From: a virus | Lineage: Duplodnaviria; Heunggongvirae; Uroviricota; Caudoviricetes | DNA length: 8,430 nt | Direction: 5' to 3' (one strand) | IMG/VR virus record: IMGVR_UViG_2667527792_000006 | Span: 1-8,430 of that record | Part shown: piece by piece, positions 1,318-5,964 of the stretch | Numbering within the stretch: the stretch's first letter is position 1 | How the letters are laid out: each line of letters starts with the position of its first letter | Notes under the pieces: model-generated | Seen by the model: the letters and a program-made list of their open reading frames with translations, nothing else | Told to the model about the DNA's origin: nothing | The model's database searches: none | Made by a program: the position numbers and the translations under genes

Positions 1318-1463
1318 GATAGGTTTAACTCATGTGTTGATCCCTTCTTGAATGAAATGGAGCTAAATCTATTTGGATAGTCTGGTAATAACCAATTATT
1401 TGCATTAGTTGCGACTAGATCTGACACATAGCCTTGACAGGTTGAGAGTTACCGGTTTTGTAT

Positions 1464-1658
1464 CTGGTATTAACCGGGCGTTATTTCCAGGAGATTAACG
1501 GTAAGCGCGTGTTACTGGAACGGGGCGATTTTGTTTTTATTCCGTTAGGTTCGCACCATCAAAGTTTTTATGAGTTTGGTGCCACGCGTATATTGAACGT
1601 TGGGATCAGTAAACGCTTTTTTGAGCAGCATTACCTGCCGTTGTTGCCTTATTGCTTC
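1464..1658 (+). pseudogene. chbR: AraC-family regulator internal fragment (N-terminal sugar-binding domain), matching ChbR at roughly residues 50-115; no start, no HTH domain
   Basis: Translation [65 protein letters not shown] matches my recollection of E. coli ChbR. The frame then runs into cusA-derived sequence. Boundaries are +/-5 bp. Confidence 0.55.
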
Positions 1659-2667
1659 TGCGCTTGCCGAGCGTCTGGAAGGTGGGCGCTATATCAACGT
1701 TGAGATTAACCGTGAAAAAGCCGCGCGTTACGGTATGACGGTGGCGGATGTGCAGTTGTTTGTGACTTCTGCGGTGGGCGGGGCGATGGTTGGCGAAACG
1801 GTGGAAGGGATTGCCCGTTATCCCATTAATCTGCGTTATCCGCAAAGCTGGCGCGATAGTCCGCAGGCACTGCGCCAGTTGCCGATCCTGACGCCGATGA
1901 AGCAGCAAATCACCCTGGCAGACGTGGCCGACGTTAAAGTCTCTACCGGACCGTCGATGCTGAAAACCGAGAATGCGCGCCCGACGAGCTGGATTTATAT
2001 CGATGCCCGCGATCGTGACATGGTGTCGGTGGTTCACGATTTGCAAAAAGTGATAGCTGAAAAAGTGCAGTTAAAACCGGGCACCAGCGTGGCATTCTCC
2101 GGGCAGTTCGAGCTACTGGAGCGCGCCAACCATAAGCTGAAACTCATGGTGCCGATGACACTGATGATCATCTTCGTGCTGTTGTATCTGGCATTCCGTC
2201 GGGTGGGCGAAGCGTTGCTGATTATCAGCAGCGTACCGTTTGCGCTGGTGGGCGGCATCTGGTTGCTGTGGTGGATGGGCTTTCATCTTTCTGTGGCGAC
2301 GGGTACTGGCTTTATTGCCCTTGCCGGGGTCGCCGCCGAATTTGGCGTGGTGATGCTGATGTATTTACGTCACGCCATAGAGGCCGAGCCGTCGTTGAAT
2401 AATCCGCAAACATTCAGTGAGCAGAAGCTGGATGAGGCGTTGTATCACGGCGCGGTACTGCGCGTGCGCCCGAAAGCGATGACGGTGGCGGTGATTATCG
2501 CCGGTCTGCTGCCGATTCTGTGGGGAACGGGGGCTGGTTCAGAGGTGATGAGCCGGATTGCCGCACCGATGATTGGCGGCATGATCACCGCACCTTTGCT
2601 GTCGCTGTTTATTATCCCGGCGGCGTATAAGCTGATGTGGCTGCACCGACATCGGGTACGGAAATAA
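1659..2667 (+). CDS. cusA: CusA copper/silver RND efflux pump, C-terminal ~335 aa only (5'-truncated at a junction); the ORF-track start at 1600 lies in unrelated sequence
   Basis: Translation ends ...[23 protein letters not shown] with TAA at 2665-2667, matching the CusA C-terminus. Typical RND transmembrane helices ([15 protein letters not shown]..., [11 protein letters not shown]...). Confidence 0.85.
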
Positions 2668-2768
2668 AAGCAGGATACCCCGTTTAACCGTGTGGATTGT
2701 GTCTTGCGACGATGGGCACTAAATGTTAAAAGGTGCCCCTCAACAAAAAAGACACACAGGGGAAAGGC
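2668..2768 (+). promoter_or_regulatory. cusA-pheP intergenic region with pheP 5' leader and ribosome-binding site
   Basis: AGGGG motif at 2758-2762, 6 nt upstream of the GTG at 2769. This intergenic spacing is the native cusA-pheP arrangement in E. coli. Confidence 0.5.
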
Positions 2769-3739
2769 GTGAAAAACGCGTCAACCGTATCGGAAGATAC
2801 TGCGTCGAATCAAGAGCCGACGCTTCATCGCGGATTACATAACCGTCATATTCAACTGATTGCGCTGGGTGGCGCAATTGGTACTGGTCTGTTTCTTGGC
2901 ATTGGCCCGGCGATTCAGATGGCGGGTCCGGCTGTATTGCTGGGCTACGGCGTCGCCGGGATCATCGCTTTCCTGATTATGCGCCAGCTCGGCGAGATGG
3001 TGGTCGAAGAGCCGGTATCCGGTTCGTTTGCCCACTTTGCCTATAAATACTGGGGACCGTTCGCGGGCTTCCTCTCTGGCTGGAACTACTGGGTGATGTT
3101 CGTGCTGGTGGGGATGGCAGAGCTGACCGCTGCGGGCATCTATATGCAGTACTGGTTCCCGGATGTTCCAACGTGGATTTGGGCTGCCGCCTTCTTTATT
3201 ATCATCAACGCCGTTAACCTGGTGAACGTGCGCTTATATGGCGAAACCGAGTTCTGGTTTGCGTTGATTAAAGTGCTGGCGATCATCGGTATGATCGGCT
3301 TTGGCCTGTGGCTGCTGTTTTCTGGTCACGGCGGCGAGAAAGCCAGTATCGACAACCTCTGGCGCTACGGTGGTTTCTTCGCCACCGGCTGGAATGGGCT
3401 GATTTTGTCGCTGGCGGTAATTATGTTCTCCTTCGGCGGTCTGGAGCTGATTGGGATTACTGCCGCTGAAGCGCGCGATCCGGAAAAAAGCATTCCAAAA
3501 GCGGTAAATCAGGTGGTGTATCGCATCCTGCTGTTTTACATCGGTTCACTGGTGGTTTTACTGGCGCTCTATCCGTGGGTGGAAGTGAAATCCAACAGTA
3601 GCCCGTTTGTGATGATTTTCCATAATCTCGACAGCAACGTGGTAGCTTCTGCGCTGAACTTCGTCATTCTGGTAGCATCGCTGTCAGTGTATAACAGCGG
3701 GGTTTACTCTAACAGCCGCATGCTGTTTGGCCTTTCTGT
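2769..3739 (+). CDS. pheP: PheP phenylalanine-specific APC-family permease, N-terminal ~323 of 458 aa (3'-truncated); the ORF reads on to 3815 through foreign sequence
   Basis: GTG start giving [42 protein letters not shown]..., matching PheP. Match ends after ...[10 protein letters not shown]; the tail [24 protein letters not shown] is ybhG-derived DNA read in the wrong frame. Confidence 0.85.
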
Positions 3740-3967
3740 CCGGCGACCATCAGTTTTGTCGCCAGTGTCGCCCAGTTCACGCCAAAAACCGTCGAAACCA
3801 GCGATGAACGGCTGAAACTGATGTTCCGCGTCAAAGCGCGTATCCCACCGGAATTACTCCAGCAGCATCTGGAATATGTCAAAACCGGTTTACCGGGCGT
3901 AGCGTGGGTGCGGGTGAATGAAGAACTTCCGTGGCCTGACGACCTCGTGGTGAGGTTGCCGCAATGA
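3740..3967 (+). CDS. ybhG: HlyD-family membrane fusion protein, C-terminal ~75 aa fragment (ybhG-like)
   Basis: Frame gives ...[53 protein letters not shown] with TGA at 3965-3967 overlapping the next ATG (ATGA). No 5' end present. Confidence 0.55.
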
Positions 3968-4354
3968 CGCATCTGGAACTGGTTCCCGTCCCGCCTGTCG
4001 CGCAACTGGCGGGCGTGAGCCAGCATTATGGAAAAACCGTTGCGCTGAACAATATTACTCTCGATATTCCGGCCCGCTGTATGGTCGGGCTGATTGGTCC
4101 GGATGGCGTCGGGAAGTCGAGCTTATTGTCGTTGATTTCCGGTGCCCGCGTCATTGAGCAGGGCAATGTGATGGTGCTGGGCGGCGATATGCGCGACCCG
4201 AGGCATCGCCGCGACGTCTGCCCGCGCATCGCCTGGATGCCGCAGGGGCTGGGCAAAAACCTCTACCACACCTTGTCGGTGTATGAAAACGTCGATTTTT
4301 TCGCTCGCCTGTTCGGTCACGACAAAGCGGAGCGGGAAGTGCGAATTAATGAAC
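3964..4354 (+). CDS. ybhF: ABC transporter ATP-binding protein, N-terminal ~130 aa fragment (ybhF-like); the ORF runs to 4377 in glmS-derived sequence
   Basis: [53 protein letters not shown]... with Walker A motif GPDGVGKSS. Match ends after ...EREVRINEL; the tail CRSGRC* is chimeric. Confidence 0.6.
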
Positions 4355-5143
4355 TCTGCCGGTCTGGCCGTTGTTGATGCAGAAGGTCATATGACCCGCC
4401 TGCGTCGCCTCGGTAAAGTCCAGATGCTGGCTCAGGCAGCGGAAGAACATCCTCTGCATGGCGGCACCGGTATTGCTCATACTCGCTGGGCGACCCACGG
4501 TGAACCTTCAGAAGTGAATGCGCATCCGCATGTTTCTGAACACATTGTGGTGGTGCATAACGGCATCATCGAAAACCATGAACCGCTGCGTGAAGAGTTA
4601 AAAGCGCGTGGCTATACCTTCGTTTCTGAAACTGACACCGAAGTGATTGCCCATCTGGTGAACTGGGAGCTGAAACAAGGCGGGACTCTGCGTGAGGCTG
4701 TTCTGCGTGCTATCCCGCAGCTGCGTGGTGCGTACGGTACAGTGATTATGGACTCCCGTCACCCGGATACCCTGCTGGCGGCACGTTCTGGTAGTCCGCT
4801 GGTGATTGGCCTGGGTATGGGCGAAAACTTTATCGCTTCTGACCAGCTGGCGCTGTTGCCGGTGACCCGTCGCTTTATCTTCCTTGAAGAGGGCGATATT
4901 GCGGAAATTACTCGCCGTTCGGTAAACATCTTCGATAAAACTGGCGCGGAAGTAAAACGTCAGGATATTGAATCCAATCTGCAATATGACGCGGGCGATA
5001 AAGGTATTTACCGTCACTACATGCAGAAAGAGATCTACGAACAGCCAAACGCGATCAAAAACACCCTTACCGGGCGCATCAGCCACGGTCAGGTTGATTT
5101 AAGCGAGCTGGGACCGAACGCCGACGAACTGCTGTCGAAGGTT
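4355..5143 (+). CDS. glmS: GlmS glutamine--fructose-6-phosphate aminotransferase, internal fragment (about residues 31-293 of 609); lacks the N-terminal catalytic Cys and the whole isomerase domain
   Basis: [60 protein letters not shown]...NADELLSKV matches GlmS. The ORF-track start at 4283 lies in ybhF sequence, and the tail FSTA* is nikE antisense. Confidence 0.9.
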
Positions 5144-5229
5144 TTCAGCACCGCCTGATGTTGATGTTTTCCGCTAAATCCACCTTGGGCATAGTGATGG
5201 GAAAGGCCGCAGACGTTAAGTAAGGTCAT
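5144..5229 (-). CDS. nikE: NikE nickel ABC transporter ATPase, first ~28 codons only
   Basis: Reverse complement reads ATG ACC TTA CTT AAC GTC ... = [28 protein letters not shown]. The ATG overlaps the nikD stop (ATGA at 5226-5229), which is the native arrangement. Confidence 0.7.
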
Positions 5230-5661
5230 GATGCCAGCTCCATACCGTAGAGGGCGAGATGAGCGGAAACCAGGCTGCGCGTCACCGTATGTTTGGGGGC
5301 GTTAAACAGCGTTTCTACATCGCCCTGTTCGACAATTTTACCTTGTGACATCACCGCCACGTCATCCGCCAGACGCGCCACAACGCCCATATCATGGGTG
5401 ACCAGCAGCATTCCCGGCGCTTGTTTTTGCATAATGCTTTCCAGCAGATCGAGGATGCGCGCCTGTGCTACCACGTCGAGGTCGGTGGTCGGTTCATCGG
5501 CGATGATAAACGGTGATTCACACAGCACCGCCATCGCAATCATCATGCGCTGCAACATGCCGCCGCTCATCTCGAACGGGTACAGCTTCAGCACGCGCGC
5601 GGCGTTTTCCAGCCCCACCGCTTCTATGGCAGCGGTAAGCGTAGCGTCATCGGCGGGTTTC
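5226..5661 (-). CDS. nikD: NikD nickel ABC transporter ATPase, C-terminal ~145 aa (5'-truncated, Walker A missing)
   Basis: ...[64 protein letters not shown]...[10 protein letters not shown] with ABC signature and Walker B motifs. Match stops near 5660. Confidence 0.85.
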
Positions 5662-5964
5662 CTGACGTTTCACCCGGTACACACTGTCACCGCAGACCAC
5701 CTCATAATCAGCGGTGATCCCCCGGCGGTAGCGAATGGTGATGTAATGGGTGATGGCGTCCCCGGTCTGCGCGGTTTCCTGCCAGGTGGTGGCACTGGTC
5801 TGGATAACCTTCGCCCATGTCCGGAACGTAACCGGGTATTGAGACTCCACGCCAAAGTTGTCCGCGGGCATATCCACCCGCTGGCGGATCAGGACGCGTT
5901 TATTCAGTTCACCGGGGTCCGGCAGAATGTAGGTTGCGCTGGTCTGCGCCTGACGAATTTTCAT
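5647..5964 (-). CDS. Phage head-tail adaptor / head-closure protein (putative); native C-terminus lost, last 3-4 codons and the stop come from nikD-derived sequence
   Basis: 105-aa ORF immediately downstream of the connector gene with an ATGA overlap (5961-5964). Size and position are typical of HK97 gp7-like adaptors. Family call is by position and size, not a verified motif. Confidence 0.5.

Follow-up and report, generated by a model that had tools for sequence, protein, structure and literature searches.

A deposited Escherichia coli contig joining seven plasmid, chromosomal and prophage fragments is very probably an assembly or other artefact

The window (the whole 8,430-nt stretch of DNA analysed here) coincides from end to end with contig CDRT01000304.1 (8430 bp) of the draft E. 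coli assembly GCA_001373215.1, deposited at NCBI, and is in all probability an artefactual chimeric contig of some kind. Seven segments of 0.2–2.8 kb, drawn from plasmid, chromosome and prophage, make up its entire length, each matching an E. coli locus of its own at 99.95–100% identity. The contig is almost certainly an artefact to flag, with no biology to study. A preliminary description made from the sequence alone had called the window an artificial composite or chimeric contig rather than a natural rearrangement; the chimeric contig stands and the composite does not, the window being a deposited record, and a synthetic in silico composite of different strains is ruled out on the same ground. 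The consensus is clean and of high quality, with a genuine strain-specific SNP, and neither end connects to anything that anchors the contig in a replicon. An Rfam scan of the window returned no matches, and a literature search on CDRT01, GCA_001373215, CCCB01, GCA_000945835 and ERR738824 found nothing relevant.

Seven segments and their native loci

Parents were assigned by local BLAST against fetched parental loci, together with a base-by-base display at the junctions. Mapped separately, as had been proposed, each segment matches its own native locus at near 100% identity. The leftmost segment, S1 (positions 1–1463, no strand assigned), is a fragment of a large E. coli plasmid that aligns as a single block at 99.7–99.8% to CP024249.1, OP242220 and OP242271. 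It lies outside the range covered by the preliminary description, which had recognised the other six pieces and missed this seventh. Positions 1–217 are annotated as an IS91-family end, at the left end of the contig and away from the junctions. Past this end the DNA has about 33% GC and contains a hypothetical membrane-protein gene on the minus strand, split by a frameshift (720–1211 and 496–747). No S1 open reading frame matches a Pfam family at E≤0.01; a precomputed match to PF27470 (TfpB) is listed for the 163-residue S1 frame, and this model is perhaps absent from the local Pfam copy.

Three segments on the plus strand follow. S2 (1463–1657) is a 195-nt internal fragment of chbR without start or stop, 100% identical to chbR in many genomes. 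S3 (1654–3739; 2086 nt) starts at about codon 711 of cusA, covers the last third of that gene, continues through the native intergenic spacer into codons 1–323 of pheP, and has one mismatch to strain M8 and others; the change, at 2051, produces the rare CusA A843V by computed codon effect. S4 (3739–4352; 614 nt, 100% to strain 600468) comprises the 3′ end of yhiI, of the HlyD family, and codons 1–129 of rbbA. The preliminary description had read this piece as the paralogues ybhG and ybhF.

S5 (4353–5143, plus strand; 791 nt, 100% to M8 glmS) is an internal glmS fragment of codons 30–293 of 609. Start codon and catalytic N-terminal cysteine are missing, as is almost the whole isomerase half, and GATase domains are the only ones that Pfam detects. 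Its neighbour S6 (5144–5662; 519 nt, 100% to GPEC1405 and 99.8% to 600468 and M8) carries the 5′ end of nikE and the 3′ part of nikD on the minus strand, in agreement with the earlier reading that glmS and nikE are inverted relative to each other and that glmS is an internal piece without start and catalytic cysteine. The contig closes with S7 (5662–8430, minus strand; 2769 nt), a prophage head module with one synonymous mismatch to an APEC O78 prophage and 97.6% identity to Shigella phage SfIV, in which Pfam Phage_HCP is detected. Its head-closure gene is truncated (5647–5964, chimeric tail included), and its other genes encode a head–tail connector, a 66-residue frame, the major capsid protein, a prohead protease and the start of the portal at the contig end.

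In native genomes S4 and S6 lie near each other in collinear order, 5,408 nt apart (post-hoc P about 0.01–0.03). Strain M8 is about 100% identical to S3 and S5 and only 97.2% identical to S4, which matches 600468 at 100%. Given recombination in E. coli, these mixed M8/600468 matches neither support nor refute a single source isolate.

Six abrupt junctions with chance-level overlap

The six abrupt junctions between unrelated E. coli fragments were found within 0–5 nt of where the preliminary description had placed them, and the chimeric reading-frame tails that it quoted are present in the list of open reading frames. At each junction, identity to the parent drops from about 100% to the random level within 1–4 bases, an abrupt loss beyond what chance can produce. 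The plasmid/chbR junction (1462/1463) shares one base (T), chbR/cusA (1653–1658) four (GCTT), pheP/yhiI (3738–3740) one (T), rbbA/glmS (4352/4353) none, glmS/nikE (5143/5144) none, and nikD/phage head-closure gene (5661–5663) one (C). The total of 7 shared bases compares with 4.0 expected by chance (P=0.14). Five junctions fall inside coding sequence on both sides; at 1463 the general statement that all do so holds for one side only, the left side being plasmid DNA without an established gene. The window contains zero non-ACGT bases, with no Ns or ambiguity codes at any junction.

All six junctions were checked for a common motif or restriction site and for repeats, inverted repeats, target-site duplications and IS ends, and none was present. 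The earlier observation that IS ends, target-site duplications and att-like repeats are missing from the junctions was thus right, the only IS sequence being the IS91-family end at 1–217. A repeat search of the window returned only short families at chance level. Several routes to such joins are rejected on these grounds. The overlaps reported by megablast, of 10 nt (at rbbA/glmS) and 6 nt, would suggest microhomology-mediated joining, and they prove to be an effect of gapped extension: ungapped local alignment gives 1, 4, 1, 0, 0 and 1 nt. Ligation through restriction sites or linkers would leave a motif common to the junctions, and there is none. Rearrangement by an IS or transposon is rejected because no IS end, inverted repeat or duplication lies at a junction and the sole IS sequence is at the contig end, and site-specific recombination of att or integron type because the 0–4 shared nucleotides differ at every junction. 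A repeat-induced mis-join in a de Bruijn graph needs at least 20 nt (the k-mer length) in common, and the longest shared stretch is 4 nt. Host DNA borne by a specialised transducing phage or prophage would sit next to the prophage attachment end, beside phage genes that are otherwise whole; it is likewise rejected, as the join interrupts the head-closure gene, midway through the structural module, and no phage record has it. With chance-level sharing and no motif, the observed pattern is the one given by simple abutment.

Native contexts elsewhere and a second chimeric contig

A reference genome with the segments contiguous had been named as the counter-evidence to seek, and none of 5,426 complete E. 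coli genomes, 72,556 plasmids (PLSDB) and 50,697 phage records has sequence running across any of the junctions. For junction 6 (5662), the one junction string scanned in these further collections, a 35-mer across the join is absent from 185,579 GTDB species-representative genomes, IMG/VR and JGI metagenomes. Seven candidate reading frames span junctions: five were looked up and matched, each on a single NCBI contig, the window's own, among about 15 billion proteins, and two alternative start calls were absent. None of the five has a record from Logan or from NCBI read-based assemblies.

The same sources do contain what appear to be the native counterparts. Logan contig ERR738824_443, an independent assembly of raw reads, matches all 1463 nt of S1 at 100% identity and runs on into native sequence past both S1 ends, for about 1.6 kb on the far side of the 1463 breakpoint; the rarity of the plasmid variant suggests the same isolate. 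CusA A843V occurs elsewhere only in an intact 1047-residue gene, on two contigs of up to 16 kb (about 15 billion proteins searched). These come from NCBI third-party read assemblies and Logan, and the rarity of the allele again suggests the isolate of the window.

The same plasmid, at 100% identity, is found in a sister contig, CCCB01000908.1, of a different draft assembly. This contig too is chimeric, in the order plasmid, 85-nt yhbX fragment, yiiG–fdhD. Its Ns fall, in 8/8 cases, where the native continuation of the left parent and the incoming piece disagree. In a 12-nt overlap zone the parents agree at 4/5 called bases, and at the remaining one (2771), where they differ, the yhbX base is called; in a 4-nt overlap zone they agree at 3/3 called bases. 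A single molecule cannot carry two sequences, so at these joins the bases were called as a consensus of data in conflict. This software-type N signature is seen in the sister contig only and not in the window. From the comparison we infer that the process behind the sister contig also made the window, acting in silico rather than on DNA in a tube.

Origin of the joins and consequences

Assembly, scaffolding or gap-closing software probably joined the pieces of the window in silico. Such software would have set unrelated small contigs or fragments side by side and merged them without a gap, abutting seven stretches from one isolate's plasmid, chromosome and prophage end to end. The mosaic arrangement would then be absent from the cell, and each truncated gene would be a redundant partial copy of a locus that the genome also carries whole. 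Unless amino sugar is added, E. coli cannot do without glmS, and the cultured isolate must therefore carry an intact copy beside the S5 fragment. The window resembles misassembled short-read draft contigs in that its segments are identical to distant native loci, its junctions are unique to one record, it is a short, high-numbered contig in a fragmented draft, and an independent assembly of reads that may come from the same isolate shows native context. It differs in that typical graph misassemblies join at repeats of at least the k-mer length, whereas the joins here share 0–4 nt and number six in 8.4 kb, which excludes a repeat-induced mis-join and implies a positional or forced merge step. 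Against in silico joining, the window junctions have no Ns, and the sister contig that has them comes from another assembly; common scaffolders insert Ns between unlinked contigs, and no program known to us abuts them bluntly six times running; nor would random mis-joining predict the collinearity of S4 and S6 (5,408 nt apart).

Joining in silico is nevertheless more likely for the window than ligation in vitro, a possible but less favoured origin in which sheared or degraded isolate DNA was blunt-ligated into concatemers during library preparation or ligation-based whole-genome amplification, and the concatemers were amplified or cloned to enough copies to assemble as a contig of their own. 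A ligase joining random ends gives blunt, motif-free junctions at which bases are shared at the chance level, as in the window, which also resembles such concatemers in its random breakpoints, lack of microhomology, free orientation and pieces from all replicons (plasmid, chromosome and prophage). Piece sizes of 0.08–2.8 kb resemble those of sheared fragments, two related assemblies are affected, and contig numbers as high as 304 and 908 hint that the data sets are of poor quality. A ligation product, however, has one sequence at a join, whereas the Ns of the sister contig mark a consensus of two sequences, overlaid for 12 and 4 nt and always 3′ of the join, for which a positional merge is the better fit. 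The chimeric reading frames are also missing from read-based assemblies that do have the rare plasmid variant and CusA allele, pieces of up to 2.8 kb exceed short-read fragments, and the whole 8.4-kb molecule would need to be multi-copy. Template-switch chimeras of phi29 multiple displacement amplification are a far-fetched source. They do yield multi-segment reads and contigs from one genome, and one pair here (S4 and S6) lies within their usual range of 10 kb, but such chimeras are mostly inverted, with overlaps of 5–8 nt, and the two sites joined usually lie on one molecule at a distance of less than 10 kb (PMC9984789). The window departs from these distributions of orientation, overlap length and distance: its overlaps are 0–4 nt, 6/6 joins link different replicons or far-apart loci, and the close pair is not joined directly, S5 lying between. 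Each such molecule is moreover unique and would not reach assembly depth.

A mosaic formed in vivo, by tandem capture of short chromosomal and plasmid copies beside a prophage head gene through end-joining repair or templated insertions, is very unlikely. To our knowledge, six consecutive captures of 0.2–2 kb pieces are unprecedented in bacteria, and such a series is what this origin would demand. The glmS piece does replace the 5.4 kb of DNA between the collinear S4 and S6, resembling a deletion with filler DNA, and the clean consensus with its strain-specific SNP would suit a genuine sequence. It is scarcely credible, even so, that the mosaic is a real molecule in which a double-strand break was repaired by serial capture and an rbbA–nikE deletion was filled with a glmS fragment. 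A RecBCD/LigA-dependent alternative end-joining pathway is present in E. coli (bioRxiv 10.1101/605246) and, as in the window, the joins are illegitimate and without long homology; native end-joining is rare (about 3e-5), with 1–3 nt of microhomology at every junction examined (bioRxiv 10.1101/605246). Microhomology everywhere and single deletions are its norm, whereas the window has six serial joins with shared bases at chance level in total, and 2/6 junctions share no base, outside the 1–9 nt of microhomology expected at each junction made by this pathway. Further against an origin in the cell, the window junctions occur in none of the 5,426 complete genomes, the other carriers of the rare cusA allele all have the intact gene, the sister contig is a similar mosaic with software-type Ns, and the contig is unanchored at both ends. 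Were the molecule real, against this evidence, it would be a remarkable example of E. coli capturing several DNA fragments, in an event akin to chromothripsis or templated insertion and in a species without classical end-joining.

The value of the result is mainly one of hygiene. The contig and its predicted proteins are already in public protein collections. They include truncated CusA, PheP, RbbA, GlmS, NikD, NikE and head-closure proteins with invented C-terminal tails, and such chimeric proteins could pass for pseudogenes, gene fusions, phage-borne host genes or a new operon. The earlier warning that truncated genes and operons across junctions should not be treated as real still holds. 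Screening of such data sets is advised before they are used for pangenome, pseudogene or prophage-cargo analyses, and whole data sets from this source may be affected, since a second draft with the same plasmid has a similar contig.

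Composition of the window and anatomy of its joins

The window is very probably a chimeric contig that arose as an artefact, with no biological arrangement behind it. In a near-identity search with the whole window, each of 5,426 complete E. coli genomes matched it somewhere, and in none did a single place cover 80% of it. Piece limits were set by overlapping sub-queries and local alignment to parental loci, and these resolve positions 1455–5665, previously described as a mosaic of E. coli gene fragments, into six pieces (S2–S7). To the left lies S1 (1–1463), which matches large E. 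coli plasmids (CP024249.1, for example) from end to end at 99.7–99.8% identity. It is followed by an internal fragment of chbR (S2, 1463–1657), the 3′ end of cusA with the 5′ part of pheP (S3, 1654–3739), the 3′ end of yhiI with the 5′ part of rbbA (S4, 3739–4352), codons 30–293 of the 609 of glmS (S5, 4353–5143), the 5′ end of nikE with the 3′ part of nikD on the minus strand (S6, 5144–5662), and a prophage head module (S7, 5662–8430). Piece-to-parent identity is 99.95–100% and reaches the random level 1–4 bases from each join. This alignment places the junction coordinates of the preliminary description within 5 nt; the genes it called ybhG/ybhF-like are in fact the paralogous pair yhiI–rbbA. 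The truncated genes and cross-junction operons of the window are not to be interpreted.

Adjoining pieces share the bases T, GCTT, T, none, none and C at junctions 1 to 6 (S1/S2 to S6/S7), a total of 7 nt, where unrelated sequences abutted bluntly would be expected to share 4.0 (P = 0.14 by simulation). Overlaps of 10 and 6 nt in the first megablast maps were gapped-extension effects. No common motif, restriction site, direct or inverted repeat, target-site duplication or IS end occurs at any of the six joins, in agreement with the earlier observation that IS ends, target-site duplications and att-like repeats are lacking there. IS-mediated recombination is ruled out by the lack of an IS end, repeat or target-site duplication, and site-specific recombination by the lack of a shared core, adjoining pieces having 0–4 bases in common. 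Repeat-driven graph mis-joins require k-mer-length identity, which the joins do not have, and are therefore excluded. The window contains no N, and an Rfam scan found no family anywhere in it.

The start of S1 (1–217) is an IS91-family transposase-end fragment, and enterotoxigenic-type E. coli plasmids carry copies that match it at 100%. This fragment forms the left end of the contig and lies at none of the six junctions; the contig probably stops here because the sequence is repeated. On the minus strand at 496–1211, in plasmid DNA of 33% GC, a frameshift splits a hypothetical membrane protein into ORFs of 163 and about 80 aa. The unsplit form of 238 aa is intact in other E. coli (protein P0080), and a precomputed Pfam match to PF27470 (TfpB) was not reproduced with a local Pfam copy. 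The genes of S7 encode a head closure protein, a connector, a 66-aa ORF, an HK97-type capsid and an S78 prohead protease. This module has one difference, synonymous, from an E. coli APEC O78 prophage (5860, G against A) and shares 96–98% identity with SfIV, SfI and SfII, serotype-converting phages of Shigella.

A single deposited contig and the carriers of its markers

Exact-sequence look-ups in about 15 billion public proteins recovered five of seven junction-spanning ORF candidates, each on exactly one contig, which comes from NCBI and is 8430 bp long: the rbbA N-terminus with the tail ...CRSGRC, pheP with the tail ...SKPAMNG, a truncated head-closure protein, the glmS fragment and a 46-aa nikE-tail ORF. 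The other two, which are alternative start calls, were absent from the same collection. The contig holding all five, CDRT01000304.1 of assembly GCA_001373215.1, is identical to the window, which is thus a whole contig of a deposited draft genome. The initial proposal of "an artificial composite or chimeric contig" stands for the chimeric contig, and a composite made for a test is ruled out. Scans of 185,579 species-representative genomes, of IMG/VR and of JGI metagenomes found no copy of a 35-mer over junction 6, and no record in plasmid and phage collections spans any junction. Contiguity of the segments in a reference, named beforehand as a finding that would refute an artificial or chimeric origin, appeared in none of the 5,426 complete E. 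coli genomes nor in plasmid or phage records.

The hypothetical protein of S1 has here a rare 163-aa form that occurs on only two other contigs, the Logan contig ERR738824_443 (L010) and CCCB01000908.1 of GCA_000945835.1 (L009). Both share the frameshift split, which is therefore a trait of the plasmid lineage and unrelated to the chimera. L010, from an independent raw-read assembly that may represent another isolate than the window's, matches S1 at 100% over its full 1463 nt. It continues natively about 1.6 kb beyond the 1463 breakpoint, which therefore cuts ordinary plasmid sequence, and 69 nt beyond position 1. A second marker lies in S3, where T instead of C at 2051 gives CusA A843V, the sole coding difference of the window from its references. 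Among about 15 billion proteins, full-length CusA (1047 aa) with exactly A843V is recorded on no more than two contigs, of up to 16 kb, which come from NCBI third-party read assemblies and from Logan; for the unmodified allele, the count exceeds 1000 contigs. A843V is a genuine rare allele, and since its only other carriers have the full-length protein, their cusA is intact, unlike that of the window, which is broken at codon 711. Being so rare, the allele can help to trace the read sets of the source isolate.

L009 is likewise a chimera of several pieces. It has the plasmid of S1, with 100% identity, followed by an 85-nt internal yhbX fragment (2762–2846) and then by yiiG–fdhD. Its plasmid piece stops elsewhere than S1, at the point equivalent to window position 451. 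All eight Ns in L009 fall at positions where the native continuation of the left parent and the incoming piece disagree. Five bases are called within the 12-nt overlap zone: at four of them the parents agree, and at the fifth (2771) they differ and the yhbX base is called; in the 4-nt zone of the second join, agreement positions account for all three called bases. Because one DNA molecule cannot hold two sequences, these joins represent a consensus of two conflicting sequences superimposed on each other, so the merge was computational. This second chimeric contig suggests a systematic fault in a set of related public assemblies. Such contigs are present in at least two related draft assemblies in the public databases, and invented proteins from them are already in public protein collections.

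Origin of the joins

In silico joining by an assembly, scaffolding or gap-closing pipeline is the best-supported reading and a reasonably probable one. Such a step would have taken small, unrelated contigs or fragments from a single isolate, set them next to one another and merged them without leaving a gap. Its main rival, which we consider rather unlikely, is a physical chimera made in vitro, in which fragments were blunt-ligated into a concatemer and then amplified. Both are compatible with joins that are blunt and lack a motif, and with pieces drawn from all replicons. What favours in silico joining over ligation is the two-sequence N zones of L009, together with the absence of the chimeric ORFs from the read-based assemblies, possibly of other isolates, that hold the rare plasmid and cusA variants. 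As glmS is essential without amino-sugar supplementation, the cultured isolate must hold an intact copy besides the S5 fragment.

Chimeras formed during phi29 amplification are mostly inverted, overlap by 5–8 nt and connect partners separated by less than 10 kb (PMC9984789); they are a poor fit to the window, whose joins share 0–4 bases. End-joining in vivo by E. coli RecBCD and LigA, with a frequency of about 3e-5 per event, would be expected to leave microhomology at each of the junctions (bioRxiv 10.1101/605246). In contrast, two of the six junctions share no base, and six serial captures would be unprecedented, making such an origin highly improbable.

Proximity of the yhiI–rbbA and nikE–nikD pieces

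In the native genomes of strains 600468 and M8, S4 and S6 are collinear, same-orientation neighbours 5,408 nt apart, in the gene order yhiI–rbbA–yhhJ–hicAB–nikR–nikE–nikD, and the unrelated glmS piece occupies exactly the place of the DNA between them. For randomly drawn pieces, the post-hoc probability of such proximity is about 0.01–0.03. Neither random abutment nor any explanation considered accounts for it, and read-pair-guided scaffolding or some local process might lie behind it. Among the 5.4 kb of native DNA that is absent between S4 and S6, and so outside the window, is a hicA/hicB toxin–antitoxin pair, which lies in the native yhhJ–nikR interval of the closest genomes, at 6450–7036 of the locus fetched from strain 600468 (L013) and at 5795–6381 of that from strain M8 (L014).
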